Origin: Cyanobacteriota bacterium
Lineage (GTDB): Bacteria > Cyanobacteriota > Cyanobacteriia > Cyanobacteriales > Nostocaceae
Assembly: GCA_046045965.1 (NCBI GenBank)
Contig: JBJOKS010000051.1
Span: 1-17,324, forward strand
Direction of reading: 5' to 3'
Length of the DNA: 17,324 nt
The translations under genes and the position numbers were made by a program. Positions 1-16,394 of this stretch are shown here, piece by piece (positions within the stretch are counted from its first letter, which is position 1; every line of letters begins with the position of its first letter). Under the pieces are notes generated by a model. It was not told where the DNA came from. It saw only the letters and a list, made by a program, of their open reading frames with translations, and searched no databases.

Positions 1-3000
1 AATTGGGATCTTGAATTTCAGCAAGGATGTATTTTACCGATGTTTCTGCATCTAAATCTGGACTGATATCAAGGGAACGACAAAATACAGTTTCCCATTC
101 GTGATTTAAACTCTTGGTCAGTCCAAATAATCCTGCACTAATTGGACTAAAATTAGTTGCTTTTCCGAGTGCAAATTCTCCATCTAATCGTGCAACACTT
201 AAGAAACAATTACGTCCTTTGGTTGCTGCTTGATTGAGTGGTTCTTTCAGATGTTTGGCAATTAAAAAGACATGACGGAGAATGGATTTTTCAGTTTCAG
301 AACTACCACTGAATACAGGATTTAAGTGAATGAAACTAGCTACAGAACCAAAATTATCAGCAATATCAGTTAATTGTTGTTGTAAACTTTCCTCATCCCA
401 ATCATTTAATCTTACCTGATTAATTTCCGCAGGTAAATTTGATTCGATAGAAGGGAAGCTTAAAACTACGGTTTTGCAACCTCTTCCTGCTAAATTTGTA
501 GCTAATTCTTGGGTAGTTGGAGAACCATCATCAGTGATTAAAACAATGTGATTTTCAGGAATGGTGAAATCTAAAATATCAGGTGGGGGAAGTGGTTTTA
601 ATTTTGCTGGACTGCGAAGAATTTGGTGTTTAAATTCTGGTTCTTTAAGATTCTGCTGTTCTGGTATCAGCAACTTAGTTACACTTTCAGCCTGATGTTG
701 CATATACTCGGCAATTTGTCCTAGTGTACGCAATTGTCCTAATTCTTCTGGGTTCGGTTTGGGTAAGTCTGGGTAAAGTTCTAAGAGTCCTCCTAAAATT
801 TCTACCCGTTTGATCGAATCAATTCCTAAATCTGCTTCAATATCCATTGATAGTTCTAACATTTCTACTGGATAACCAGTTTTATCACTAACAATGTTGA
901 GCAGAATGTTACTCAAATCTGCGGGAATTGTTATTTCTTTTTCAGCAGATTTTTCTAATACATTCTCCTGAGATGGAATAACAATCTGTATTTCATTCTC
1001 GACAGTTTTATTAGAAACTTCTACTAACATTTGTGCGGGGAAAATTGGTGTTTCTGAAGTCTCTACTTGTTGATTTAGCAACTCTGGAACTAGAGTTTTT
1101 ATATACTCGGCAATTTGTCCCAGAGTCCGCAACTGTCCTAATTCTTCTGGGTTGGGTTTGGGTAAGTCTGGGTAAAGTTCTAAGAGTCCTCCTAAAATTT
1201 CTACCCGTTTGATAGAATCAATTCCTAAATCTGCCTCAATATCCATTGACAGGTCTAACATTTCTACTGGATAACCTGTTTTATCACTGACAATATTGAG
1301 TAGAGCTTGGCTAAGAGTGGAGGTATCAATATTAATTGGAGTTGTAATATTGACGGTGATAGGATTTGATTTTTCTTCTATCTCCTCCACTGCAATAAAC
1401 GAAGAAATATTAACTTCATTTACGCCAAAATCATTATCAAAGGATTTTTCAGTTTTCTCTGCTTCTAGGAAATGCTGAGTAAGATTTATAGAAGGAGGTT
1501 GTTGTGGATTTATATCATCAGAAATCTCTAAAAAATTATAATGTTGTTGCAGTAATTGAAAGTAGTTATTGGCGTAGTTTTGCTGATAGTTGAGATATTT
1601 TTCATGAATGCGGATAGTTTCAGATTGATGATCATGAAGCCGCATCATGCTACGTTCAGAACTAGAAATTGCTAGTTGTTGTGTTTGCGCTTGATATTCA
1701 TTTACCTCTTTATTTTCTAACAATGAATACTGTTTCTGCATTAATTCATAAAATGTCTTTGTGTACTCTGTTTGATTTTGCAAAGACTGTTCATGAACTT
1801 GTGTAATGTCACTTTGTTGGCGAGTAAATTCTGCTAATGATTGTTCTAAACTATCAATAACTCGGTCATAATTGGGAAGTTGAATTTCTACTTTTTCTAA
1901 TTTGCTATTATTGCCATTCTTCACGGTTTTACCATGACTGCTTTTTTCCTCTAACACTTCCTGGTTTGGGGGGAGGGGAATTTTGATATCAGCAACAACT
2001 GGTTGCGGGTGGTGTTCGTTGACTTTTGCTGTTTCCAATTTGACAACATGACCATTTTCTAAGGCTTTTGCAAATGCTTTTTGTACTTTTTCGGTGATAT
2101 TGGTACTATTCAAACGCACATTCAAAACTTTCTTTTTATCAACTTCGGGTATTTTAGTTTCAATTTGGTAAGGGTCGAGATTTTTCAAAGGTACACCAGC
2201 AACTCGCAACTGTATTACTGCTTCTCTTAATACTAAATCGCTATCTTTGCGATAATTTCCATTTAAAGCTACAGCTATATGCGGTTTTTCACCCAAAATC
2301 TCTTTCACTAAGTTAGTGAGAACGTTTTTTGGTCCAAACTCAATAAAGCAAGAACCACCATTTGCATAAATATTTTCAATCTCCTGTTGAAATAACACCT
2401 GATTTAACAAATGTTGCTTGAGATTTTTTTGAATTGCTGCGGGTTCATGGGGGTACAATTTCCCTGTGACATTGCTATAAACTGGAATTTTTGCTTGATG
2501 AAAAGTTACCTTGTCAATTGCGTGGGAAAAAGGTTTTTGTGCATGGGCTACTAATGGTGTGTGAAAAGCTGCGGAAACTCCTAATAAAAATGTTGAAAAT
2601 CCCTTTTCTTGCAAAACATTCTGCACTTTGGTAATTTCTGATTTCTTACCAGCTAATACTACCTGATGCTGAGAATTCCAATTAGCAATAGCAACTTGAG
2701 GGAAGTCTTTAATTAACTCTTTTACCTGACTGACATCACCTTTAACCGCTAACATTCCCCCCGCATCAATTTCTGTGGGTGTGGCCATTGCTTGTCCTCT
2801 AGCTTTGACCAAAAAGAAATAATCTTCTTCACTTAAAACACCCCCAGCCCATAAAGCTGTTAATTCTCCAAAACTATGACCGGCAACAAAATCAGCTTTA
2901 AAACCAGCTTGTTTTAATATTTTATACAACCCTGCACTAAAAGCGCCAATTGCTGGTTGTGCATATTCGGTTTTTTGTAGTGTTTCTAGCTGATTTTTTT

Positions 3001-5047
3001 GGTGTTCTGCCTCAAAAACTGGCTGTGGAAATACGACTTCAGAAATGGATTTTAAACCATCTTGAGAGAATAAATGATCAAGGTGATTATAGGTTTGACG
3101 TAAGCAAGGAAAGTTAATTACTAATTCTCGCCCCATTTCCAAATATTGGGAACCTTGCCCGGAAAATAATGCTACTATTTTGCCTGTAGTTTCTATTCCT
3201 TGTTGACGGTAATATATTCCTTTGGGATGTTCCCAAGATTCCGCTTGAGGTTTATTTTTGATTAACTCAATAATGAGGTGTAAAAATTCTCCAGCTTGTG
3301 TCAAAGATGCTGCTACAAATCCCACTCTGGCATGGTTAGTAGGAACTTCAATTTTTTCGCATTCTGTAATTAGTTGTTGATAATGCCGTTCTTGATCTTC
3401 TGATTGCAATTGTTGCTGGATATCTTCACAGCGAGATAATAATTCTGCGGTTGTGGGTGCAAATAAGAGGATTGATTTTGCAGAATTGTGTAAACGATAC
3501 GAATGATCATGTTCATTTGTATATTCCTCTAAAACAACGTGATAATTTGTGCCTCCAAAACCGAATGCGCTTACCCCTGCGCGTCTAGGTTGGTTAGTAA
3601 TCCAAGGTCTAGTTTCTGTGTTTAAATAAAATGGTGAATTCTCAATATTTAGTTTTGGATGTGGTTTGGTAATGTTAATTGTGGGTGGTAATACTTTGTG
3701 ATGCAATGCCAAAGCTGTTTTAATTAAACTTGCTGCACCAGCGGCGGCTTTGGTGTGTCCAATTTGGGATTTAACTGTTCCCAAGGCAATGTGTTGTTTT
3801 TGGGAATTGTTTTCACCAAATACCTCTTTAATAGAGGTGAATTCGGTGGGATCTCCTACCATTGTTCCTGTGCCGTGGGCTTCAATTAAACCCACAGTTT
3901 CTGGTGAAAATCCGGCATTTTCATAAGCACGACGGAGGGCTTTAACTTGTCCTTGGGAATGGGGAGCGTAAATACTTTTATACTTGCCATCGCTGGAAGT
4001 GCCAATACCTTTAATGACTGCATAGATGCGATCGCCATCTCTAACTGCATCATCCAGGCGTTTAAGTACCAACATCCCCACACCTTCACCTAACATCATG
4101 CCATCTGAATCTGCATCAAATGGTTTAACTTTTTCCCCAGGAGAAACAGCAGGTGTTTTACTAAAACACATATAGGCAAAAATCGAATTATCGGTGTCAA
4201 CTCCGCCAGTTATCATCATATCGGCGCGATGTTCAACTAACTCGCTAATTGCCATTTTTAATGCACCTAAAGAACTGGCACAAGCTGCATCAACTACACA
4301 ATTCATCCCTCCCAAATCGAGACGGTTAGCGATACGTCCAGAAATCACATTAGCTAACATTCCGGGGAAGGCGTTTTCTTCCCACTGCACATAAGCACTT
4401 TTGAGTTTATCAATCACTTTTTCGGTTTCTTGAGCTGATAAACCGCTGTTTTTCAGAACTTTTTCCCAAACCGGATATTGCAACCTTGCACCTAAAGGTA
4501 CTGCTAATTGTCTACCAATTGCTACACCTAATATTACTCCCGTGCTTTCCCTATTAAACTGTCGAGATTCAGTATAACCTGCATCTTCCATTGCCGCTTT
4601 TGCAACTACCAAACCCAATAACTGGGAAATATCTGTCACCTCTAAAATATTTGGAGGTAAACCAAATTCCATCGGATTAAAATCAATATCTGGGATGAAT
4701 CCGCCTCGTTTACAGTAAGTTTTATCTGGTGCTTTGGGATCAGGATCATAGTAATCCTCTACACTCCAGCGTGAAGGGGGAACATCAGTAATACAATCAA
4801 CTTTCTGAATGATTTTTTCCCAATATTCCTGTAAATTTTTTGACTGGGGAAATATCGAAGCCATACCAATAATTGCAATATTTGTTTGCTGCAATTTGGT
4901 ATTAATTTCACTGACTAAATTTGTGTTTTCTGTTGTAATTTGTGGCATATTTCTTTTTACCTTGATAAGCTTGAGCAGAGCCTTTTCACAATTGCTAACT
5001 TCATCTTGCAATTGTGATAACGCAGCTTCAAATTTGGAAGCAGCCAT
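1..5047 (-). CDS. hglE: Heterocyst glycolipid synthase-type iterative type I PKS (PfaA/HglE family; KS-AT-ACP-ACP-KR-like C-terminal region); 3' end lies beyond the window edge
   Basis: Segments translated by hand. N-terminus MAASKFEAALSQ...NIAIIGMASIFPQ. KS motifs DLGGMNCVVDAACASS (~4270-4320), EAHGTGT (~3865-3885) and KSQIGHTKAAAG (~3740-3775). AT motifs VAGHSFGELTA (~2855-2890) and AAFHTP (~2555-2575). Two ACPs with IEADLGIDSIKRVEILG. The left edge reads DLDAETSVKYILAEIQDPN in the same frame as ATG 5047. Alternative starts are ATG 4948 or an upstream TTG near 5122. Not every codon was checked. Confidence 0.9.
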   Translation of the reverse strand, partial: MAASKFEAALSQLQDEVSNCEKALLKLIKVKRNMPQITTENTNLVSEINTKLQQTNIAIIGMASIFPQSKNLQEYWEKIIQKVDCITDVPPSRWSVEDYYDPDPKAPDKTYCKRGGFIPDIDFNPMEFGLPPNILEVTDISQLLGLVVAKAAMEDAGYTESRQFNRESTGVILGVAIGRQLAVPLGARLQYPVWEKVLKNSGLSAQETEKVIDKLKSAYVQWEENAFPGMLANVISGRIANRLDLGGMNCVVDAACASSLGALKMAISELVEHRADMMITGGVDTDNSIFAYMCFSKTPAVSPGEKVKPFDADSDGMMLGEGVGMLVLKRLDDAVRDGDRIYAVIKGIGTSSDGKYKSIYAPHSQGQVKALRRAYENAGFSPETVGLIEAHGTGTMVGDPTEFTSIKEVFGENNSQKQHIALGTVKSQIGHTKAAAGAASLIKTALALHHKVLPPTINITKPHPKLNIENSPFYLNTETRPWITNQPRRAGVSAFGFGGTNYHVVLEEYTNEHDHSYRLHNSAKSILLFAPTTAELLSRCEDIQQQLQSEDQERHYQQLITECEKIEVPTNHARVGFVAASLTQAGEFLHLIIELIKNKPQAESWEHPKGIYYRQQGIETTGKIVALFSGQGSQYLEMGRELVINFPCLRQTYNHLDHLFSQDGLKSISEVVFPQPVFEAEHQKNQLETLQKTEYAQPAIGAFSAGLYKILKQAGFKADFVAGHSFGELTALWAGGVLSEEDYFFLVKARGQAMATPTEIDAGGMLAVKGDVSQVKELIKDFPQVAIANWNSQHQVVLAGKKSEITKVQNVLQEKGFSTFLLGVSAAFHTPLVAHAQKPFSHAIDKVTFHQAKIPVYSNVTGKLYPHEPAAIQKNLKQHLLNQVLFQQEIENIYANGGSCFIEFGPKNVLTNLVKEILGEKPHIAVALNGNYRKDSDLVLREAVIQLRVAGVPLKNLDPYQIETKIPEVDKKKVLNVRLNSTNITEKVQKAFAKALENGHVVKLETAKVNEHHPQPVVADIKIPLPPNQEVLEEKSSHGKTVKNGNNSKLEKVEIQLPNYDRVIDSLEQSLAEFTRQQSDITQVHEQSLQNQTEYTKTFYELMQKQYSLLENKEVNEYQAQTQQLAISSSERSMMRLHDHQSETIRIHEKYLNYQQNYANNYFQLLQQHYNFLEISDDINPQQPPSINLTQHFLEAEKTEKSFDNDFGVNEVNISSFIAVEEIEEKSNPITVNITTPINIDTSTLSQALLNIVSDKTGYPVEMLDLSMDIEADLGIDSIKRVEILGGLLELYPDLPKPNPEELGQLRTLGQIAEYIKTLVPELLNQQVETSETPIFPAQMLVEVSNKTVENEIQIVIPSQENVLEKSAEKEITIPADLSNILLNIVSDKTGYPVEMLELSMDIEADLGIDSIKRVEILGGLLELYPDLPKPNPEELGQLRTLGQIAEYMQHQAESVTKLLIPEQQNLKEPEFKHQILRSPAKLKPLPPPDILDFTIPENHIVLITDDGSPTTQELATNLAGRGCKTVVLSFPSIESNLPAEINQVRLNDWDEESLQQQLTDIADNFGSVASFIHLNPVFSGSSETEKSILRHVFLIAKHLKEPLNQAATKGRNCFLSVARLDGEFALGKATNFSPISAGLFGLTKSLNHEWETVFCRSLDISPDLDAETSVKYILAEIQDPN
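702..1303 (-). repeat. Two tandem ACP-domain coding repeats (~702-904 and ~1101-1303, offset 399 bp)
   Basis: Near-identical DNA (e.g. gggtaagtctgggtaaagttctaagagtcctcctaaaatttctacccgtttgat in both copies). Both encode the phosphopantetheine motif LGIDS. Confidence 0.92.
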
Positions 5048-5316
5048 GACAATATCTTCAGTAGTTTGCTCGTGCAATGTAGAACTAGAAATGTGTAAAA
5101 AGTCGTTATCTCTGTGAATCAAGACATTAGAATTAAAGAACTAGAGACAACAATCTTGTCTGTGTAAGTAAATTATTGATTGCTAAATTAAATTTGGTAA
5201 AATGCTTCACTCTGCGGCTTAAGCTGGGATAGTTTCATATTGAAAACTTGATCCTTTTCCCTGTAACTTCAAATTGCCGCTGACTTATTTTTATCTTAGA
5301 CTGGTGACAAATCTTT

Positions 5317-6785: not shown

Positions 6786-7985
6786 ATGGTACACAAAGAA
6801 AAGCAGTCATTCACAAACCCTGTAGGTTGGTTGTCGATAACTTTGGCAGTTACTACATTTGTAGCTACTGGCGTATTATCTTACTACAGCCTGTCACGTT
6901 TTCATTTGAAACCTAAATCAAATACTCCAGTTTCTATCAGCAGTCCTACTCCTACAGTGACTGCTGTTGCAGCTTTAGGACGTTTAGAACCTCAAGGAGA
7001 AATCATTCGTTTGTCTGCTCCCAATTCTCAAGGGGGGGGTGTGAGAGTAGCCAAACTTTTGATAAACAAAGGTGATAAAATTCGTCAAGGACAAGTAGTA
7101 GCAGTTCTTGATAATCACGCTCCTAATGTTGCAGCTTTAGAAAAAGCTAAACGACAAGTACAAGTTGCTGAAGCTAGTCTCAAACGAGTAAAAGCAGGAG
7201 CAAAACAAGGTGATATTTATGCTCAAAAAGCTACAATTGCTCGTTTAGAAGCTGAGTTACGTGGTGAAACTTCTGCTCAAAAAGCCACAATTGCTCGCTT
7301 AGAAGCTGAATTAAATAATGCAGAAACAGAAAATCAGCGATATCAGAAATTATATCAAGATGGCGCTATTTCGGCTTCAAATGCTGATACTAAACGCCTA
7401 CGAAGGGATACTGTACAACAACAATTAAATGAAGCCAAAGCTGCCTTAAACCGAACTGTAGAAACTCTGCAAAAACAGTTAAATGAAGCCCAGGCTAGAC
7501 TGGAGAGTATTGCCGAAATTCGCCCCACGGATGTGCAAGCAGCACAAGCTGATGTTGAAAGTGCAAAAGCATCCGTTAAACAAGCTCAAGCAGAGCTAGA
7601 TTTAAGTTCTATCCGTTCACCTATAGATGGACAAGTGTTAAAAATTAATGCTTGGCCAGGAGAAATAATTGGTAGTAATGGGATAGCTCAATTAGGTCGC
7701 ACTCAACAGATGTATGTAGTCGCAGAAGTCTACGAAAGTGATATTAAAAAAGTGCGTTTAGGTCAGTCGGTTGAAATTACTGGGGATGCTTTTACGGGAA
7801 AAATTCAGGGAACAGTTACAGATATCGGTTTACAAGTTGGTAAACAGAATATCTTTAATACTAATCCCGGTGCTGATACAGATAACAAAATAGTTGATGT
7901 CAAAATTCGCATTGATAAACCAACAGATAACCAACGAGTTGCGGCTTTGACTAACTTACAGGTGCAGGTACTTATAAAAATATAA
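6786..7985 (+). CDS. devB: DevB-family membrane fusion protein (ABC exporter periplasmic adaptor)
   Basis: N-terminal TM helix, AVAALGRLEPQGE, lipoyl-like halves (IRSPIDGQVLKI), long alpha-hairpin, MYVVAEVYESDI, C-terminal LTNLQVQV. Which paralog it is (devB vs hgdB etc.) is unresolved. Confidence 0.9.
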   Translation: MVHKEKQSFTNPVGWLSITLAVTTFVATGVLSYYSLSRFHLKPKSNTPVSISSPTPTVTAVAALGRLEPQGEIIRLSAPNSQGGGVRVAKLLINKGDKIRQGQVVAVLDNHAPNVAALEKAKRQVQVAEASLKRVKAGAKQGDIYAQKATIARLEAELRGETSAQKATIARLEAELNNAETENQRYQKLYQDGAISASNADTKRLRRDTVQQQLNEAKAALNRTVETLQKQLNEAQARLESIAEIRPTDVQAAQADVESAKASVKQAQAELDLSSIRSPIDGQVLKINAWPGEIIGSNGIAQLGRTQQMYVVAEVYESDIKKVRLGQSVEITGDAFTGKIQGTVTDIGLQVGKQNIFNTNPGADTDNKIVDVKIRIDKPTDNQRVAALTNLQVQVLIKI

Positions 7986-8007
7986 ACGGTAGATTAGATC
8001 CCTCCAA

Positions 8008-8026
8008 CCCCCCTTATTAAGGGGGG
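8008..8026. repeat. GC hairpin CCCCCC-TTATTAA-GGGGGG between devB and devC, resembling small dispersed cyanobacterial inverted repeats
   Basis: Read directly; context ccctccaaccccccttattaaggggggct. Confidence 0.55.
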
Positions 8027-8091
8027 CTAAGAGAGATCAAGAAATGATTAATAATTCAATTTGTATAATCTGACTTTCAGAGGTTTTAAAT

Positions 8092-9264
8092 ATGATTTTG
8101 AATATCCCTCTAGCTTGGCTACAATTAGCCAAACAAAGAGTTCGCTTTTTTGTGGCTTTAGCCGGAATTGCTTTTGTTGCTGTTTTGATGTTTATGCAAA
8201 TAGGCTTTCAAGACGCTTTGTATGCTAGTTCTACACAATTACATAAAAATATCCAAGGAGACTTGTTTTTAATTAGCGCCCAATATAAATCTTTAACATC
8301 TAATCAAAGTTTTCCCCGCAGTCGTTTATACCAAACATTAGGTTTTGCAGATGTTGAAGCCGTTGATCCTTTATATGTGCAGTTTGCTAAGTTAAAAAAT
8401 CCCATTAATGGGGGCAAGTATCCTATATATATACTAGGATTTGACCCAGTTAAATCAATTTTTAAATTACCAGAATTAGAGAAAGATTTTAAGTTACTAC
8501 AAATACCTGATCAAGTATTTTTTGACGGTGCTTCTCGTCCAGAGTTCGGACCTATTGCTGAATTTTATCAGCAAAATAAACCTGTAAGTATGGAAATATT
8601 TAGTTATACGGGTTTAGTCGGTTACAGAGTAAAAGTTAGTGGCTTATTTAGTCTTGGTCCTTCCTTCGGAGTTGATGGAAATTTAATTGTTAGTTCTTCT
8701 ACCTTCATGCGAATATTTGCGGGACGTAATGCTGACGAAATAGATATAGGCTTAATTCACCTCAAACCAGGTGCTAATACTAAAAAAGTTTTAGCAAATT
8801 TATCAGCCAAGTTACCTAAAGATGTCATTATCATGACTCGCCAACAATTTATTGATTTTGAAAAAAGCTATTGGACTTTAAGAACACCAATTGGATTTGT
8901 ATTTAACCTCATGGTATTTATGGGTTTTGTGGTGGGGGTAATTGTTGTTTATCAAATTCTTTATAGTAATATATCCACTCATTTTGTAGAATTTGCCACT
9001 CTCAAAGCTATGGGTTTTAAAAATAAATATCTCTTGCGTGTCGTTTTTCAACAGGCTTTATTTTTAGCAGTATTGGGCTATATTCCCGGTTTTGCTATAT
9101 CCCTGGGACTTTATGATGTTGCCAAAAATGCAACTAAGTTACCAATTATTATGGATATAGAAAAAGCATCAATAGTGTTAATTTCCGCTATTTTGATGTG
9201 TTTAGTTTCTGGTTTTTTCTCTACAAATAAATTACGCAAGTTAGATCCAGCCGAAATTTTCTAG
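8092..9264 (+). CDS. devC: DevC-family ABC exporter permease (FtsX/MacB-like)
   Basis: IPLAWLQL...ALAGIAF N-terminus, VYQILYSNI..H..EFATLKAMG motif, KLRKLDPAEIF C-terminus. Confidence 0.92.
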   Translation: MILNIPLAWLQLAKQRVRFFVALAGIAFVAVLMFMQIGFQDALYASSTQLHKNIQGDLFLISAQYKSLTSNQSFPRSRLYQTLGFADVEAVDPLYVQFAKLKNPINGGKYPIYILGFDPVKSIFKLPELEKDFKLLQIPDQVFFDGASRPEFGPIAEFYQQNKPVSMEIFSYTGLVGYRVKVSGLFSLGPSFGVDGNLIVSSSTFMRIFAGRNADEIDIGLIHLKPGANTKKVLANLSAKLPKDVIIMTRQQFIDFEKSYWTLRTPIGFVFNLMVFMGFVVGVIVVYQILYSNISTHFVEFATLKAMGFKNKYLLRVVFQQALFLAVLGYIPGFAISLGLYDVAKNATKLPIIMDIEKASIVLISAILMCLVSGFFSTNKLRKLDPAEIF

Positions 9265-9276
9265 CACTATCCAATT

Positions 9277-9960
9277 ATGATGGAATCAAAAGCAATTTTA
9301 GAAATCTGTAATCTCAATCAATATTTTGTGACAACCAAATTAAAAGACCAGATATTATTTGACATTAATTTGACAATTAGTTCTGGTGAAATTATCATCA
9401 TGACTGGTCCTTCTGGTTCGGGAAAAACGACTTTGTTAACTTTAATTGGTGGTTTACGTTCTGTTCAAGAGGGAAGTTTAAAATTTATCGGACAGGAATT
9501 ATGTGGAGCAGAAAATGATAAATTAGTGCAAGTACGTCGCCAAATTGGTTATATTTTTCAAGCTCATAATTTACTAGACTTTTTAACAGCTAGACAGAAT
9601 GTACAAATGTCGTTGGAATTACAAGCAAATATTTCTGAATCGGAAGCTAAGATGCAATCAGAAGCGATGCTTCATGCTGTAAAATTAGGTCATCGCATTA
9701 ATTATTATCCATCTGATCTTTCAGGTGGACAAAAACAACGGGTTGCTATTGCTCGTGCTTTGGTTAGTCATCCTAAATTAGTCTTAGCTGATGAACCTAC
9801 AGCAGCTTTAGATAGTAAATCTGGTCGAGATGTTGTCAACTTGATGCAAGAATTAGCACGGGAACAAAATTGTGCTATTTTAATTGTTACTCATGATAAC
9901 CGCATTTTAGATATTGCTGACCGGATCATTCAAATGGAAGATGGTAGGTTAATTATGTAA
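9277..9960 (+). CDS. devA: DevA-family ABC exporter ATP-binding protein
   Basis: Walker A GPSGSGKT, IGYIFQAHNL, signature LSGGQKQR, Walker B/D-loop LVLADEPTAALD, H-loop VTHD; starts 12 bp after devC. Confidence 0.93.
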   Translation: MMESKAILEICNLNQYFVTTKLKDQILFDINLTISSGEIIIMTGPSGSGKTTLLTLIGGLRSVQEGSLKFIGQELCGAENDKLVQVRRQIGYIFQAHNLLDFLTARQNVQMSLELQANISESEAKMQSEAMLHAVKLGHRINYYPSDLSGGQKQRVAIARALVSHPKLVLADEPTAALDSKSGRDVVNLMQELAREQNCAILIVTHDNRILDIADRIIQMEDGRLIM

Positions 9961-11208: not shown

Positions 11209-11511
11209 TTACTTATTAATAGGGGTTTTGCTTTGCCACATTTGTTCAAATTCTGCTTGAGAAATTTCAAATTCTTCTATAGTTTTATCATCTAATTTTT
11301 TATCGCATAGCATCCCATAATTATCGGCTACATGATTTTTATCATAAAATAAAACGTTGCCATTTTCATAAATTTCTATTTGTCTATGGGCATATAAATT
11401 ACCATCAAGTTCCATAAAGTAGGTGCTACAACCCCAAGAGTCATATTCACCTCCAAGAGGTACATCCCAAGACCATTTGTAGTATTTTTTGGTTTTTTGT
11501 AATGTAGACAT
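11209..11511 (-). CDS. Small acidic/aromatic hypothetical protein (DUF6881-like, immunity-protein-like)
   Basis: RBS AGGAG upstream of the ATG; pattern Y..ELD..Y..RQIEIYENG...EIS..EFE..W. Family assignment is from memory. Confidence 0.6.
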   Translation of the reverse strand: MSTLQKTKKYYKWSWDVPLGGEYDSWGCSTYFMELDGNLYAHRQIEIYENGNVLFYDKNHVADNYGMLCDKKLDDKTIEEFEISQAEFEQMWQSKTPINK

Positions 11512-11769: not shown

Positions 11770-12207
11770 TTAGTTAAGTCGGATTATTTCCCGTACTTCC
11801 ATTAAAATTTGACCTAGCATATTTTTACCACTACCATCAGATCCACAACCCCAATAGAAGTCTATAGGGGAATTTTCCACTATTTCTTCATCACCTGTAG
11901 ACAGGAGAACTTCCCTAATATCTAGGTGGGTGGAAAATTTACACAGCACTGCTTTTCGCATAATATCATCTTTCACTTGTTCCCAATCTGAACGGAGAGG
12001 ACGAGTTCTTTGTCTACCCATTTTTGCTGCATCCTTTGGAGTTTTAACAAGTCGGATCGCTTCTAAATGGTGTGTGCCAATAAATTTTTGTGCTTGAAAG
12101 TAATGTTCACTGGTAGACCAATACAAATCATCTAATACAAATCCGTGAGGTGAAAAGTTAGAAAAACAAGCGTATTGATCACGAGTATGATAAAAGTAGA
12201 TTGTCAT
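11770..12207 (-). CDS. NADAR (YbiA-like) family protein
   Basis: FSNFSPH, W.TSEHYFQAQKF, R.DWEQVKDDIM, KF, LLSTGD..IVENSP.D.YWG.G..GSGKN.LG..LM.VR motifs. Confidence 0.93.
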   Translation of the reverse strand: MTIYFYHTRDQYACFSNFSPHGFVLDDLYWSTSEHYFQAQKFIGTHHLEAIRLVKTPKDAAKMGRQRTRPLRSDWEQVKDDIMRKAVLCKFSTHLDIREVLLSTGDEEIVENSPIDFYWGCGSDGSGKNMLGQILMEVREIIRLN

Positions 12208-12706: not shown

Positions 12707-14062
12707 TTATGAATTATCTGTCAGTTGTTTGACATGAGCAGGGAAACTGGCATTTTTGAGAGATTGGACAGCGGAGAAAGAATCTTGCACCCAAAATTGC
12801 TTACCAAAACGCACGAGTTGACGAGAATTTCCTGCTTGGACAATTCCAATTACTGGGACTTTTGCTTTATCTTTATCTCCTGATTGTTCTTTCAAAATTG
12901 ATCGGAGACGATGTTGCACATCAATAGTACCGGCTTCCTGTGGATTTAATTCTACTACTACCATTTGAACTTTCTCAACTTGTTCGGCATCTTCAACAAT
13001 AAATTGATTTTGATCATCCCGTTTGTCTACTTTTCCCCAAATGATTAATCTAGCATCAATTTGTAATAGTGAACTAACTCGTTCATAATTTTTAGGAAAG
13101 ACAATTGCTTCTAATGCAGCTGTTAAATCTTCTATTTGTAAAATTGCCATTGGATCGCCTTTTTTGGTGACTACTTTTTTCACATTATTCAGCATCACAA
13201 CTGCACAAAGCATGGTATTATCTTTCTGTTCTCCTAACTGTGCCAGGTTAATTGGTGCGAGCAGAGAAGAAGATTGTTTAATGTTTTTTAGTGGGTGAGC
13301 CGACACATAAAAACCTAATAATTCTTTTTCCATTCGCAACTTTTCCTGTGGGGGAAAATCTAAAGTTGCTTCAGCTTTGGGAGCAGATTCAAAAGCATTT
13401 TTAGCTGATTGTTGATTATTACTGGCAAGTCCACCACCCATAAAATCAAATAGATTTCCCTGTCCACTGGCTCTATCTTTAGCACGGGATTGCGCCCAAT
13501 CATATACTAATTCTAAATCTCTAATTAATTGTTGGCGGTTGGATTCAATTTTATCAAAGGCTCCACACTGAATCAATGATTCTAAAGTCCGACGGTTAAC
13601 AGTACGTAAATCAATGCGATCGCAAAAATCGCCTAGAGATTTAAATTCTCCTCCCTCTGCTCTCGCTTCTAAAATTCCAGCGATCGCATTTTGTCCCACA
13701 TTCCGCACTGCCGAAAATCCAAATAAAATCTTATTATCTGCTGGCGTAAAATCCAACCCAGAACGATTAATATCCGGCGGATCAATTTCAATTCCCATCG
13801 TTGTGCAGTTGTTCAGATATTTCTGCACTTTATCTGTATCTCCACTGTTAGCAGTTAACAGCGCCGCCATATATTCTAATGGATAATTGGCTTTTAAATA
13901 TGCCGTTTGATAAGTAACATAACCGTAGGCGGTAGAATGGGATTTATTGAAACAATTAGAGGCAATTAAACCATTTTTAATGGCAAAATTATGATCCTGT
14001 GCAACGCCAATATCATAAACATTGGCTTCACCTACGTATTGACGAGAAATGATTTTAACCAT
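12707..14062 (-). CDS. dnaE: DNA polymerase III alpha subunit C-terminal part, fused to split intein C-fragment (dnaE-c)
   Basis: A 36-aa IntC followed by CFNKSHSTAY, YLKANYP.EYMAALL, PPDINRS, EKELLGFYVS.HPL and the OB fold. Confidence 0.97.
   Translation of the reverse strand: MVKIISRQYVGEANVYDIGVAQDHNFAIKNGLIASNCFNKSHSTAYGYVTYQTAYLKANYPLEYMAALLTANSGDTDKVQKYLNNCTTMGIEIDPPDINRSGLDFTPADNKILFGFSAVRNVGQNAIAGILEARAEGGEFKSLGDFCDRIDLRTVNRRTLESLIQCGAFDKIESNRQQLIRDLELVYDWAQSRAKDRASGQGNLFDFMGGGLASNNQQSAKNAFESAPKAEATLDFPPQEKLRMEKELLGFYVSAHPLKNIKQSSSLLAPINLAQLGEQKDNTMLCAVVMLNNVKKVVTKKGDPMAILQIEDLTAALEAIVFPKNYERVSSLLQIDARLIIWGKVDKRDDQNQFIVEDAEQVEKVQMVVVELNPQEAGTIDVQHRLRSILKEQSGDKDKAKVPVIGIVQAGNSRQLVRFGKQFWVQDSFSAVQSLKNASFPAHVKQLTDNS
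13955..14062 (-). other. DnaE split intein C-fragment (IntC, 36 aa)
   Basis: MVKIISRQYVGEANVYDIGVAQDHNFAIKNGLIASN|CFN: block F (VYDIGV..DHNF), terminal Asn, Cys+1 at 13952-13954. Confidence 0.97.
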
Positions 14063-14142
14063 ATTACTTAGCTTTTGAAAATTTGTTTATTTACTGATTT
14101 TAGATTAACAATTATGCTGTACAGCAGCTTTCATCCATCAGT

Positions 14143-14469
14143 CTAATTTACCAAATAAATCGAAACTAACCAAGCACTAATTCCTGAACCAATCCAGCCA
14201 AACAAAAACATCATAATAAACATCATGATACCCCTACCAACTCCCGCTCCCAATGACCCCGCCTCCGGTGGACCAGTTTTCAGATCATCCAACCAGATTA
14301 AATACCCATAGAAAGAAGCTCCAGCGATCGCCAACAGTATAAACCCAACCATCCCACCTACGGGAATCAAAAGCAGACTCCAAATAAACCCAAACCGATT
14401 AAAAGCACCCCATAGAATGAACAGAGTTGGACTAGCCAAAACCATCAAAGGTAATAAGAATTGAATCAT
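14143..14469 (-). CDS. Small hydrophobic membrane protein (~3 TM, Gly-rich), unknown function
   Basis: Hydrophobic segments separated by W.DD..TGPPE.G. ATG 14469 is preferred over the non-ATG start at 14505. Confidence 0.65.
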   Translation of the reverse strand: MIQFLLPLMVLASPTLFILWGAFNRFGFIWSLLLIPVGGMVGFILLAIAGASFYGYLIWLDDLKTGPPEAGSLGAGVGRGIMMFIMMFLFGWIGSGISAWLVSIYLVN

Positions 14470-14602
14470 GATGAAATTGGGGTTTTTCCTTAGCAGCCAG
14501 ACCAAACAAAGGCAAACTCATCTTTATGCGTTTTGCATTGAAGGATATGAGCAATATCACCAAACATATAGGGAAGGTTTTCGCAGGAAGCTAAGTGAAA
14601 TA

Positions 14603-16270
14603 CTAAGAGATGTTTACTGAGAAAATTTGCAGACTACCTTGAGTACAAATTAATCGCAGACTATCAATTTCCGCAGGTGGGATACGATGTCGGTAATGAG
14701 AGAGAAAGGTGTCATTCAAATAAACAGCCAATTGGGTTTCTTGTACCACGATCTTCACAGTAAACTTTTTACCAGAGGCCATCTCTTGAGGGAAGGGTAG
14801 TCTTTCCTCTTGTCCCCAATTTCCAACCTTAGTATTTTGAACGATTTGTCCTTCATGGGAACGGGGATTGAAATGATAGGCAAAATTTTCTCCTGCCATG
14901 AGGTTGAAAGAAAAGCAGGAACCAAGAGAAATAGCAACAATTTCTACCGTAGAACCTGGTCGGAATTTAACAATATTCCACCAAATTATATCTTCTGGTT
15001 TAACGGTTAAAAGCAGTCCTGGTGTTGTCGAGTAAGGTATTTTCTGAACAATGTCATTTCTTTGTATCGCTTCAGGACAGTAATCGACCTCAGCAAACCA
15101 GCCTTCCGTGTCCCCTCCAGCCCATCCTTCTACACCAAAAGTTTGACGGCATAGCTCTTTGAACTCTGGAGCAGCACTGATATCTTGATTTTTGTATCCT
15201 GCTGGATGGAAAATTCCGCCTATATATCTGCCTTTAAGGCGAATTTGCCCCACCACATAGATACCTCCACCCACCGAATACACAGCCTTGGCTGGATTTC
15301 GTGAGTAAAATGCCACATAGCCACCATCAACGCCAGTGTACTGATTCACAGTAGGTAAAATTAGCTCCTCAACTCCCTGCGCCCCATGAGAATCAATGCC
15401 AACCATATCCATATCATTAGTAAAAACGCGAAAATCTTCTGGTAGCCAGTAGGGAATTGAATCTGGTTGGGAAGATGATTTAGTCGTCTGTGATGGATGT
15501 TGTCCCGGCTGAGGTAATATTACATAGCCTTTTTTTAACTTCTCATTGATTTTCTTCACAGCAGCAGCTTGGACTTGGCGGGGAGTTTTGTAAGTTGTGT
15601 GGTCAGTTTTCCCAGCAGTACCAATGCGACCATAGCAGATTTTTAGAGTAAATCCTTCAACGGTGACTTCATAGAACTTGTGGGACTTGTCGTTGGAGAG
15701 TTCCATATAAACAGGTTCACCGATGGAATGGGGGGAATAGTAGGGGTCATTGCTGGTAATAGTGGAATAATAGTATTCTTCAGCTTCTTCTTGGGACCCA
15801 AACTCACGCACATCTTCAGATAAAAAATTCTCGCCAAAATCGGTAGAAATCAGCCTTACTTGCAGACCTTCTAGGGTAATATTTCCATAATTGGGCATTT
15901 TACCGGTGTCGATTTCAAACCGGGCATATACATCAGGTTGAGGTAGAGGATAGCAAGGAAAATAGCGATCGCCCGATTTATCAACTGCAACTAATATACC
16001 GCCACTCATGAACAAATTTCCATCCTCTAGTACACGCAATTCTTCAGTGTAGGAAGGAGTTGTCCAAGTCAGGAAAACAGATCGACAATCAGGTGAGATG
16101 GTGTAGTTACCCGAACGACTATGGTTGATTATTTGACAAGAACCATCAGGTGCAAATGAATAGGGGTATTTATCGCCTAATAGCCAAATTGAACGGATCA
16201 GTTTTTCACGAAGTTCTGATTGAGTGGAGGGATGAGAAGACATAGATAGTTGAGTATTTTTATACTCCAA
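14603..16270 (-). CDS. Multidomain protein: N-terminal beta-rich domain + degenerate WGR-like + WGR + unknown domain + C-terminal galectin domain
   Basis: WGR (~15524-15712): SHKFYEVTVEG...YGRIGTAGK...KINEKLKKGY. Galectin (~14606-15040): HFNPR, IVQN, WGQEER, YRHR. The start may be ATG 16243. Confidence 0.85.
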   Translation of the reverse strand: MEYKNTQLSMSSHPSTQSELREKLIRSIWLLGDKYPYSFAPDGSCQIINHSRSGNYTISPDCRSVFLTWTTPSYTEELRVLEDGNLFMSGGILVAVDKSGDRYFPCYPLPQPDVYARFEIDTGKMPNYGNITLEGLQVRLISTDFGENFLSEDVREFGSQEEAEEYYYSTITSNDPYYSPHSIGEPVYMELSNDKSHKFYEVTVEGFTLKICYGRIGTAGKTDHTTYKTPRQVQAAAVKKINEKLKKGYVILPQPGQHPSQTTKSSSQPDSIPYWLPEDFRVFTNDMDMVGIDSHGAQGVEELILPTVNQYTGVDGGYVAFYSRNPAKAVYSVGGGIYVVGQIRLKGRYIGGIFHPAGYKNQDISAAPEFKELCRQTFGVEGWAGGDTEGWFAEVDYCPEAIQRNDIVQKIPYSTTPGLLLTVKPEDIIWWNIVKFRPGSTVEIVAISLGSCFSFNLMAGENFAYHFNPRSHEGQIVQNTKVGNWGQEERLPFPQEMASGKKFTVKIVVQETQLAVYLNDTFLSHYRHRIPPAEIDSLRLICTQGSLQIFSVNIS

Positions 16271-16394
16271 ATATAGCTCAACTCAATTGTGGCAGGTGCA
16301 GGAGCTAAAAAGCTTAACCTTATTTATCAGCGATCGCTCTCCATAGAGTATGAGAAAATATTATAGGTAATAGGTTTAGATATTTTTAAACACC

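Follow-up and report, generated by a model that had tools for sequence, protein, structure and literature searches.

What a galectin domain does in a cyanobacterial protein that also carries a WGR domain is the question raised by a gene on the 17,324-nucleotide stretch of DNA analysed here (hereafter, the window). Work on galectins has dealt almost wholly with animals and fungi; bacteria go unmentioned in a review of how galectins evolved (PMC10343441), and a 2023 survey merely counts PF00337 domains in cyanobacteria. A sequence-only reading of the window had noted a galectin carbohydrate-recognition domain (CRD) and a WGR domain in one protein, and our analysis confirmed this observation.

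A five-module mosaic protein

The coding sequence of this mosaic protein lies at 14603..16243 on the reverse strand and encodes 546 aa from the ATG at 16243, which is the likely start codon; a database protein of 546 aa that is 99% identical to the query (P0002) begins at this ATG. The open frame extends to a TTG at 16270 and would then give 555 aa; residue numbers follow this 555-aa form of the query protein (P0001). From the N- to the C-terminus, five modules follow one another, namely A, B, WGR, C and the galectin CRD, and the matches in Pfam at E ≤ 0.1 are WGR and Gal-bind_lectin alone. All peptide fragments quoted in the sequence-only reading are found in the translation of the ORF at 14603..16270. 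The interval it assigned to the protein, 14603-15712, takes in just the part between the stop codon and the beginning of the WGR domain; the gene runs on to 16243/16270 and includes two more N-terminal modules. Modules A, B and C had been missed, as had a small downstream ORF encoding transmembrane (TM) helices.

Module A (residues 10-113; 15932..16243, reverse strand), as delimited by a blastp module map and alignment A1, is a conserved N-terminal module of helix and beta-strands without a Pfam match at E ≤ 1; its language-model look-alikes are small lipocalin-like domains (scores 0.85-0.88), a weak lead and nothing more. Module B (residues 119-186; 15713..15916, reverse strand) is a beta-beta-beta-alpha unit according to the module map and the secondary structure of the AF2 model, and is possibly a degenerate WGR-like repeat, as a weak match to the WGR domain of the protein family might suggest (hhalign, P = 0.0084, probability 4.7%, 49 columns). 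A Pro/Gln/Ser-rich linker (residues 251-266; 15473..15520, reverse strand), with pLDDT < 50, lies between WGR and module C. A promoter-like site 5' of the gene (16360..16389, reverse strand) consists of TTAAAA, an 18 nt spacer and TATAAT, with 10/12 matches, and is a consensus match only.

The AF2 model of the full-length protein is poor overall (mean pLDDT 55.6). The highest Kyte-Doolittle mean over 19 residues is 1.49, compared to an applied threshold of 1.6, and the protein thus contains no hydrophobic segment, which fits the lack of a signal peptide and of a TM helix. It is probably soluble and cytoplasmic, in agreement with the sequence-only reading, which had seen no obvious signal peptide. 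The GC content of the gene (0.39-0.445) exceeds the values typical of the window (0.33-0.40) so slightly that it gives no clear sign of transfer. Membership in the NCBIfam family LIC_11051 was rejected, as the sole match, in the WGR part, reached 41.1 bits vs. a cut-off of 1000.

Galectin and WGR domains

The galectin CRD comprises residues 410-555 (14606..15043, reverse strand) and was detected by Pfam, phmmer, a genome scan and Foldseek. Gal-bind_lectin (PF00337) matches residues 435-553 (nt 14612-14968) with E = 8.1 × 10−21 and 74.3 bits (gathering threshold 22.1), and with 77.9 bits when the profile was run against the genome. The canonical beta-galactoside contact signature, H-x-N-x-R...V-x-N...W-x-x-E-x-R, is located exactly where the sequence-only reading had placed it (14801..14875, reverse strand), with all residues kept: the eight contact residues (H466, N468, R470, V477, N479, W485, E488 and R490) are present, and the sugar-contact residues align to the same residues in galectin-9. 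Comparison of the protein to PDB sequences with phmmer yielded 111 matches at E ≤ 0.01, of which the best 60 are all galectins, headed by galectin-9 (3wv6, E = 3.3 × 10−22). The proposed check of an AlphaFold-type model with Foldseek likewise recovered galectin structures: the predicted CRD has at least 500 matches in the PDB at E ≤ 0.001, all galectins among the matches listed, and superposes on galectin-8, -7 and -9 with E of about 10−10 to 10−11, TM-scores of up to 0.82 and rmsd of 2.1-2.3 Å (for galectin-7, 7n57_B, TM 0.82 and rmsd 2.2 Å over 138 columns), at moderate AF2 confidence within the CRD (pLDDT 52-83). In sequence and in predicted fold, the CRD is a genuine galectin domain.

Like the animal and fungal galectins (PF00337; nearest solved, human galectin-9, -8, -7 and -3), the query protein has no signal peptide, and it has the same predicted beta-sandwich fold and all eight canonical contact residues. 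Unlike them, it belongs to a prokaryotic host, and its single CRD, which is ~25-31% identical to solved galectins in structural alignments, stands at the end of a chain of 546 aa that combines several domains, among them WGR and unassigned modules. Among 35 related domains scoring at least 60 bits, the contact signature is intact in 23, and one subclade of related CRDs has H-x-D-x-R in place of H-x-N-x-R. That the signature is kept while CRD identity to the query drops to 43-44% (P0038 and P0041) argues for selection on sugar binding.

The WGR domain (residues 187-250; 15521..15712, reverse strand) is similarly clear, in the Pfam search (PF05406, E = 8.6 × 10−14, 51.9 bits vs. a gathering threshold of 22), in the genome scan (53.1 bits) and in alignment A2, where the residues of its central Y-G-R motif (Y204, G205 and R206) are invariant. 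Both domains exceed their gathering thresholds in the HMMER comparison that the sequence-only reading had called for. Among PDB sequences, the sole match of the WGR segment is an uncharacterised Bacteroides protein (2ra8, E = 6.7 × 10−7), with no PARP match at E ≤ 1, and Pfam detected no PARP-type catalytic or regulatory domain in the query protein. Because the nearest solved WGR domain is that of 2ra8 and not of a PARP, DNA-break binding would be an extrapolation: WGR is common to the query protein and the WGR-catalytic module of PARP1/2/3, and DNA-break sensing is an analogy only. The domain is of the same type as in bacterial WGR proteins including 2ra8, with a Y-G-[RK] centre (Y-G-R in the query, Y-G-K in 2ra8). 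Burroughs and Aravind 2014 (PMC4275035, section 9) pointed out bacterial fusions of WGR with YwqG/DUF1963 (TYPP), and galectin occurs 0 times in that paper; close relatives of the query protein combine WGR with DUF1963, whereas the query protein itself lacks DUF1963.

Module C

Module C (residues 267-402, ~125 aa; 15065..15472, reverse strand), defined by alignment A3, AF2 and structural searches, is the most conserved part of the protein family, with 15 invariant columns across 34 sequences, and was modelled with pLDDT 86.2 and pTM 0.80. It falls into no Pfam family, and structural searches yielded no match with Foldseek against the PDB (best E 1.7), with VIA-align over 48161 chains (best Z 2.5; Z ≥ 2 in 5/48161) or against BFVD (best E 1.6). 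Judging from the model, module C is apparently a new domain; the absent structural match is no proof of a new fold. An assignment as an Arr-type ADP-ribosyltransferase, suggested by a language-model row scoring 0.79, was rejected as noise (the module C rows score 0.80).

Module C occurs alone in proteins of ~127 aa and is elsewhere fused to HU, C1 peptidases (P0052-55 and P0059-60), AAA_35-WD40 in a STAND-like NTPase protein (P0056), WGR or TM modules. Its carriers are mostly filamentous cyanobacteria, with some Deltaproteobacteria and rhizobia, and it is present in 10 of the 401 sampled cyanobacterial genomes. The query's own genome (92.2% complete) contains one copy each of module C, WGR and CRD. 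A homodimer prediction for module C scored 0.00, which counts neither for nor against pairing. In being found on NTPase and effector-type proteins as well as alone, module C is spread like the effector-associated (adaptor) domains described in the available part of Kaur et al. 2020 (PMC7159879); in contrast to these, it has no second genome copy for homotypic pairing, no conserved NTPase operon was found beside the query gene, and module C is not among the effector-associated domains published in that part of the source.

Downstream membrane protein

The small multi-TM ORF lies immediately 3' of the gene at 14143..14505 on the reverse strand (120 aa from a TTG; an ATG at 14469 would shorten it). 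Its product contains 3-4 hydrophobic helices in which small residues abound. In 11 of the 75 homologues, a C-terminal TM module with 55-66% identity to this product is fused after module C, i.e., at the position of the CRD in the query protein. In genome G089, an ORF directly 3' of a WGR-galectin-DUF1963 gene is 57% identical to the TM ORF (E = 4 × 10−37). From these similarities, the TM ORF is a separate-gene version of the TM module fused in relatives, and its product is presumed to be a partner of the query protein. No terminator-like site was seen between the two genes, and no conserved operon was found around the query gene beyond the TM ORF. The co-occurrence of CRD and TM ORF in both the window and G089 indicates that CRD and TM module are not simple alternatives.

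Distribution and decay

The sequence-only reading knew of no characterised protein with this architecture. In the literature searched, we found neither a paper describing WGR-galectin proteins nor a characterised one, but the architecture is not a singleton: WGR and galectin domains are both present in 29 of the 75 homologue clusters, all named ones from filamentous cyanobacteria, and public records label some relatives 'WGR domain-containing protein', 'Galectin-9' or 'galectin family protein'. PF00337 itself was detected in 3 of the 401 sampled cyanobacterial genomes. The WGR-galectin architecture is thus recurrent yet rare and patchy. In many relatives, the CRD is located mid-protein (WGR-CRD-DUF1963). 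The C-terminus of relatives is replaced or extended by DUF1963/TYPP (many clusters) or SMI1/KNR4 (P0041); the Pfam scan of the query protein revealed neither DUF1963 nor SMI1/KNR4 (SUKH). In a quick CRD tree, the WGR-linked CRDs and a few other single-CRD proteins split from 135 multi-CRD proteins with weak support (SH-aLRT 79-85). On the sequence comparisons, the query protein is one of a family, in filamentous cyanobacteria, whose members have shuffled their domains.

At the locus itself, two genomes of the same genus lack the gene upstream of dnaE-C. In the syntenic Sphaerospermopsis locus (L005), the TM ORF is deleted in its entirety, along with the greater part of the CRD, and the remaining ORF (P0004, 401 aa) is kept, which shows that the N-terminal part can endure without CRD and TM. 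In a Planktothrix MAG (L010), the gene is broken into two ORFs, with a TM remnant of 19 residues. Near-identical DNA is found in contigs from several freshwater metagenomes (word shares 0.84-0.90). Contigs from two metatranscriptome libraries match parts of the gene at ≥ 95% identity; these are assembled contigs from libraries that may hold DNA, a weak hint that the gene is probably expressed. The region of the TM ORF is not covered by the contigs (X4 and X9), which proves nothing.

Possible functions

The explanation we favour, with a probability of about 0.35, is that this is an accessory gene for a soluble cytoplasmic protein of five modules in which the CRD and the TM protein would provide a membrane end, the N-terminal half a ligand-binding end and module C the coupler. 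The CRD would bind beta-galactosides present within the cyanobacterial cell. Among these, the head groups of the galactolipids MGDG and DGDG in thylakoid and plasma membranes greatly outnumber all others, and the CRD together with the TM protein would therefore hold the query protein at the membrane, making the C-terminal end of the system its membrane end. The N-terminal half (A, B and WGR) would bind a ligand, nucleic-acid-like or of another kind, and module C, the conserved core, would couple both ends, serving other outputs in relatives, where it is joined to a TM module, to a C1 peptidase or to a STAND-type NTPase-WD40 protein. Since canonical galectins favour Gal-beta-1,4-Glc(NAc) disaccharides and have little affinity for simple galactosides, binding of galactolipids is a guess. 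Several observations also weigh against this explanation: the joint presence of CRD and TM ORF in the window and in G089, the mid-protein CRD of many relatives, the H-x-D-x-R subclade, the poor full-length model, the missing RNA-library cover of the TM ORF and the persistence of the N-terminal part alone in Sphaerospermopsis. That the gene is rare, patchily distributed and decaying suggests a dispensable role linked to conflict or stress and not a housekeeping one. At our best guess, the protein may be a membrane-associated accessory sensor or adaptor whose CRD would bind beta-galactosides, possibly galactolipid head groups.

We regard as unlikely that the two genes form a surveillance or anti-phage (abortive-infection-type) system, in which WGR, CRD or both would detect a sign of invasion or damage, be it foreign nucleic acid, a glycosylated molecule or glycans uncovered when membrane or envelope is damaged, and the TM protein, with its many small residues, would be a membrane-disrupting effector. 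This idea is close to the sensor or adaptor in a defence or envelope-damage system proposed by the sequence-only reading. The rare, patchy spread with presence/absence polymorphism at the locus and the extensive domain shuffling among relatives lend such a system circumstantial support, as does the occurrence of module C on the AAA_35-WD40 STAND-like protein and on C1 peptidases, a wiring like that of conflict systems of multicellular bacteria in the available part of PMC7159879; however, with a single copy of module C, WGR and CRD in its own genome, the query protein has no paired adaptor. Neither the query protein nor the TM ORF matches any family in PADLOC-DB v2 at E ≤ 0.01 (0 families). 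The PADLOC model WGR_XIII, from retron type XIII, shows that a WGR protein can be part of a catalogued defence system, and is weakly matched by the relatives P0041 (E = 1.9 × 10−10), P0015 and P0040, but these matches concern the WGR part and span only ~90 of the 973 model positions; Pfam scans detected no reverse transcriptase among the window ORFs. The flanking Uma2 and NADAR genes match the candidate PADLOC families PDC-S03 and PDC-M42C, although the Uma2 family is widespread and the NADAR gene is at a distance of four genes, on the far side of dnaE-C. At five other loci, the neighbours are unconserved housekeeping genes (EamA, PNPOx-like, GNAT, aminotransferase and Psb27).

It is improbable that the protein is a lectin exported without a signal peptide, which would bind galactose-containing sheath, exopolysaccharide, heterocyst-envelope material or the glycans of other organisms. 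Animal galectins likewise lack signal peptides, the named carriers are all filamentous cyanobacteria, and at 5-10 kb from the gene the window also encodes a PKS and an exporter set (HlyD/FtsX/ABC); however, secretion-system genes are not conserved beside the gene, the TM-fused relatives have ~280-460 residues before the first TM helix and no signal peptide, and the modules that accompany the CRD (WGR, DUF1963/TYPP and SMI1/KNR4) are domains of an intracellular type (PMC4275035, section 9). We give equally little credence to a protein-protein interaction scaffold or a SUKH/TYPP-like immunity or chaperone protein, in which the CRD would be a generic beta-sandwich surface and not a lectin. The C-termini of relatives do carry DUF1963/TYPP or SMI1/KNR4 (P0041), and a role in protein-protein interactions or a chaperone-like role was proposed for bacterial TYPP in section 9 of Burroughs and Aravind 2014 (PMC4275035), but the query protein contains neither DUF1963 nor SUKH, Pfam scans of the listed window ORFs detected no toxin domain, and pure protein binding would not need the sugar-contact residues, which 23 of the 35 domains retain strictly. 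A recent product of domain shuffling that has little or no selected function and is decaying, as the truncated Sphaerospermopsis and split Planktothrix copies could suggest, has against it an intact frame of 546-555 aa, near-identical DNA in several freshwater metagenomes, a lectin signature and module C conserved among sequences 43-99% identical, and RNA-library contigs covering parts of the gene, and we consider it very doubtful.

Sensing of damage or invaders by galectins is known from animal galectin-3, -8 and -9. With low probability, the query protein could be a bacterial counterpart of this cytosolic surveillance, in which the CRD would read beta-galactosyl groups (galactolipid heads, glycans bared by a breach of membrane or envelope, or a glycosylated invader molecule) and relay the signal via WGR and module C, as a structurally new coupling domain, to the small membrane protein. 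If so, bacteria too would have galectin-based sensing, with a domain without a known fold as its basis.

Given that the WGR-galectin architecture recurs and has already been annotated automatically, its value lies in testing and not in its existence. Module C, being conserved, confidently modelled, unmatched and linked to peptidases and STAND-like NTPases as well as to membrane modules, is a good target for structure determination. The canonical sugar-binding site is retained intact in a family of probably cytoplasmic multi-domain proteins of cyanobacteria. If the CRD binds sugar, this family would allow the purpose of an intracellular galectin to be studied in a simple bacterial setting, and would supply, for a photosynthetic cell, a protein that may read galactolipids or other beta-galactosides.

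Domain structure of the mosaic protein

P0001, the mosaic protein of the window, is encoded on the minus strand by an ORF at 14603..16270 (555 codons from TTG; residue numbers refer to this form), and the window itself is an entire 17,324-bp contig of a 5.29-Mb assembly (107 contigs, 92.2% complete). A database protein of 546 aa, 99% identical to P0001, begins at the ATG at 16243, which makes this ATG the probable start; upstream of the gene is a promoter-like TTAAAA-18-TATAAT (16389-16360). The Pfam profile Gal-bind_lectin matches residues 435-553 (74.3 bits vs. a curated cut-off of 22.1) and WGR matches residues 187-250 (51.9 bits vs. 22), confirming the sequence-only reading of a galectin domain and a WGR domain in one chain. 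The contact signature H466-x-N468-x-R470 ... V477-x-N479 ... W485-x-x-E488-x-R490 falls at nt 14801-14875, exactly where that reading had placed it. Comparison of P0001 with PDB sequences (phmmer) yielded 111 sequences at E <= 0.01; the best 60 of the 111 were all galectins, and the top match among those listed was galectin-9 (E = 3.3e-22), whose contact residues line up with those of P0001. AlphaFold2 modelled the 546-aa form with low overall confidence (mean pLDDT 55.6), the galectin domain (CRD) reaching 52-83; the modelled CRD superposes on galectin-8, -7 and -9 (Foldseek; E about 1e-10 to 1e-11, TM-score up to 0.82, rmsd 2.1-2.3 Å), in agreement with the proposed galectin assignment.

Module borders, drawn by blastp against 75 homologues from a 5.8-billion-protein collection, split P0001 into parts that are found independently of one another: module A (residues 10-113), module B (119-186), WGR, a Pro/Gln/Ser linker, module C (267-402) and the CRD module (410-555). 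Module A has no Pfam match at E <= 1 and a sub-threshold, lipocalin-like lead (score 0.88). Module B, modelled by AlphaFold2 as a beta-beta-beta-alpha unit, aligns weakly and in register with the family WGR (hhalign, P = 0.0084) and is possibly a degenerate WGR repeat. At its centre, the WGR domain carries Y-G-R, invariant across the family, and the sole PDB sequence match to this segment is not a PARP but 2ra8, an uncharacterised Bacteroides fragilis protein (E = 6.7e-07). The 652-aa orthologue on an Anabaena catenula contig (L009 4898-6853) has an extra Pro/Gly/Arg-rich insert of ~60 residues between module B and WGR, present in no other aligned sequence.

Module C

The best conserved part of P0001 is module C (window 15065-15472, minus strand; roughly 125 aa), with 15 invariant columns among 34 sequences that take in rhizobial and deltaproteobacterial proteins. 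Its carriers are cyanobacteria, rhizobia and Deltaproteobacteria, where it occurs alone as ~127-aa proteins, fused to HU (P0085), at the N-terminal end of C1 peptidases from Nodularia, Rhizobium and Sinorhizobium (P0052-55, P0059-60), at the C-terminal end of an AAA_35-WD40 protein (P0056), and joined to WGR as well as to a TM module. No Pfam family corresponds to it. The model built from its alignment (A3) is confident (pLDDT 86.2, pTM 0.80) and matched nothing in the PDB (Foldseek, best E = 1.7), among 48,161 chains (VIA-align, 5 at Z >= 2, best 2.5) or in BFVD (best E = 1.6); the modelled module thus has no known fold matched in PDB/BFVD, which falls short of proving a new fold. Module C is single-copy in its own genome, and the module-C part of A3 has matches in 10 of 401 cyanobacterial genomes, 12 more matching only later A3 positions (galectin or peptidase columns).

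A small membrane protein as presumed partner

Just downstream of the P0001 gene lies the TM ORF (14143..14505, minus strand, 120 aa), with no terminator-like site between the two ORFs in the window. It is 55-66% identical to a hydrophobic segment following module C in 11 of the 75 homologues; in Planktothrix-type relatives this multi-helix segment occupies the place of the CRD in P0001 (alignment A1). A genome of a different family in the same order (G089) has a 57%-identical TM ORF (E = 4e-37) directly after a WGR-galectin-DUF1963 gene, and a Planktothrix MAG retains a 19-residue remnant of the TM module after the homologue, which is itself broken into ORFs of 117 aa and 303 aa (L010 7944-9383). 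Fusion and adjacency with the TM ORF are the only conserved gene link found for the P0001 gene; other neighbours of P0001-type genes are of housekeeping types and differ from locus to locus. In G089, a divergent gene (L012 8836-12672) adjoining the WGR-galectin-DUF1963 gene encodes a 1278-aa PD-(D/E)XK nuclease and SF1 helicase protein that matches PADLOC MkoA (E = 5.3e-22). At three Anabaena/Dolichospermum-type loci, an ORF of ~190 aa without a Pfam or PADLOC match, absent from the window, lies directly upstream of the P0001-type gene on the same strand (L007 7329-7904, L008 616-1197, L009 4218-4790).

Locus variability and neighbouring genes

The Sphaerospermopsis aphanizomenoides locus (L005) is syntenic (Uma2, gene, dnaE-C) and has two deletions, spanning window positions 15093-14782 and 14662-14136, that remove most of the CRD and the entire TM ORF, leaving a CRD remnant of 119 bp (93% identity, L005 9146-9264) and an annotated 401-aa WGR protein (P0004). 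Two same-genus genomes encode a DnaE-C 95-97% identical to the window's, have no similar sequence upstream of roughly window position 14100, and contain no P0001 gene, TM ORF or Uma2 within 6 kb. Given this loss and these absences, the P0001-TM ORF unit is dispensable and variable. Several freshwater metagenomes include contigs with near-identical DNA. Two metatranscriptome libraries have contigs over 14718-15074 and 15145-16273 (X4) and 15198-15580 (X9), only a weak hint that the P0001 gene is transcribed, as DNA may also be present in libraries of this kind; the TM ORF has no cover in these contigs, which proves nothing.

Elsewhere in the window, a split DnaE is represented by its C-terminal half (12707-14062, minus; Pfam matches to HHH_6 and OB-fold), whose start has a weak intein-splicing match (residues 2-36), as is usual for the split dnaE intein of cyanobacteria. 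An open-ended KS-AT-ACP polyketide synthase of >1707 aa (2-5122, minus; Pfam) is adjoined by a HlyD/FtsX/ABC-ATPase exporter trio (6786-9960, plus; Pfam); we take these to resemble heterocyst-glycolipid synthesis and DevBCA-type export genes. A NADAR-domain protein (11770-12207, minus) that matches the PADLOC candidate family PDC-M42C (E = 4.5e-13) stands beside a DUF6881 protein (11209-11511, minus), and the Uma2 protein flanking the P0001 gene (16395-17036, plus) matches candidate family PDC-S03 (E = 4e-16).

Distribution of the family

Among the 75 homologue clusters, 29 combine WGR with galectin; many of these add DUF1963/TYPP, one has SMI1/KNR4 and one a beta-propeller. Every such cluster with a source name belongs to filamentous cyanobacteria (Dolichospermum, Planktothrix, Phormidium, Aerosakkonemataceae, Coleofasciculaceae), and Sphaerospermopsis and Anabaena records hold further loci encoding a P0001-type protein. 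PF00337 is nevertheless rare, being found in 3 of 401 sampled cyanobacterial genomes, including that of the window, and in neither of 2 other same-genus genomes nor any of 14 control genomes. When 1.84 billion representatives were searched exhaustively with phmmer, 777 proteins scored E <= 0.001. From 173 CRDs, a quick maximum-likelihood tree was built (best domain per protein only, leaving out domains that covered <75 query positions or were shorter than 90 aa); it separates 32 WGR-linked CRDs and 5 other single-CRD proteins from 135 multi-CRD proteins and a damselfly galectin, with SH-aLRT support of only 79-85, a topology that would fit a single origin and later shuffling. Two single-CRD proteins without WGR from the representatives search, P0147 (304 aa) and P0228 (211 aa), have a hydrophobic, signal- or anchor-like N-terminus and altered contact motifs, and group with the WGR-linked CRDs in this tree.

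Possible function

Taken together, these comparisons show a predicted cytoplasmic protein with a conserved lectin site and a link to a small membrane protein, organised around a conserved core of uncharacterised kind. We tentatively prefer a model (probability about 0.35) in which the CRD and the TM protein would form the membrane end of a system, and module C would link this end to A, B and WGR, which would bind a nucleic-acid-like ligand. Candidate ligands of the CRD would be the head groups of MGDG and DGDG, which, in thylakoid and plasma membranes, are the dominant beta-galactosides inside a cyanobacterium.

The main rival is the surveillance or defence idea of the sequence-only reading, here with the TM protein as effector; it draws on the patchy distribution, the domain shuffling, the finding that STAND-like and peptidase proteins also carry module C, and a retron-XIII WGR model in PADLOC, but neither P0001 nor the TM ORF has a PADLOC match and the gene lies outside any defence island, and we consider it rather unlikely. 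Every 19-residue window of P0001 stays below a Kyte-Doolittle mean of 1.6 (maximum 1.49); neither a signal peptide nor a TM helix is predicted, which for the signal peptide agrees with the sequence-only reading. Three further readings are each improbable: an exported lectin, a SUKH/TYPP-like protein-binding scaffold, and decaying shuffled debris. WGR fusions of YwqG/DUF1963 are mentioned, and a PPI or chaperone-like role is proposed, in excerpts of Burroughs and Aravind 2014 (PMC4275035) that do not mention galectin. Of 35 related CRDs scoring at least 60 bits, 23 keep the complete contact signature, and a DUF1963-bearing subclade has H-x-D-x-R.

Excerpts of Kaur et al. 2020 (PMC7159879), which defined effector-associated adaptor domains, contain neither galectin nor WGR, and a term search of the full text of 'A brief history of galectin evolution' (PMC10343441) found no mention of bacteria. 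Excerpts of a 2023 cyanobacterial lectin survey (PMC10655256) give order-level counts of PF00337 domains (Nostocales 18, Oscillatoriales 8, Synechococcales 6, Chroococcales 4, Spirulinales 2, Gloeobacterales 1) and are silent on architecture and WGR; its supplements might list individual proteins; from these counts, galectin-type domains in cyanobacteria are already on record. No description of module C, the TM partner or the WGR-module C-CRD architecture was found in the literature searched, consistent with the earlier statement that no protein combining galectin and WGR was known to have been characterised. P0001 is a real and correctly read feature, a member of a recurrent but rare, uncharacterised cyanobacterial family, for which the clearest payoffs are expected from lectin binding and the structure of module C.
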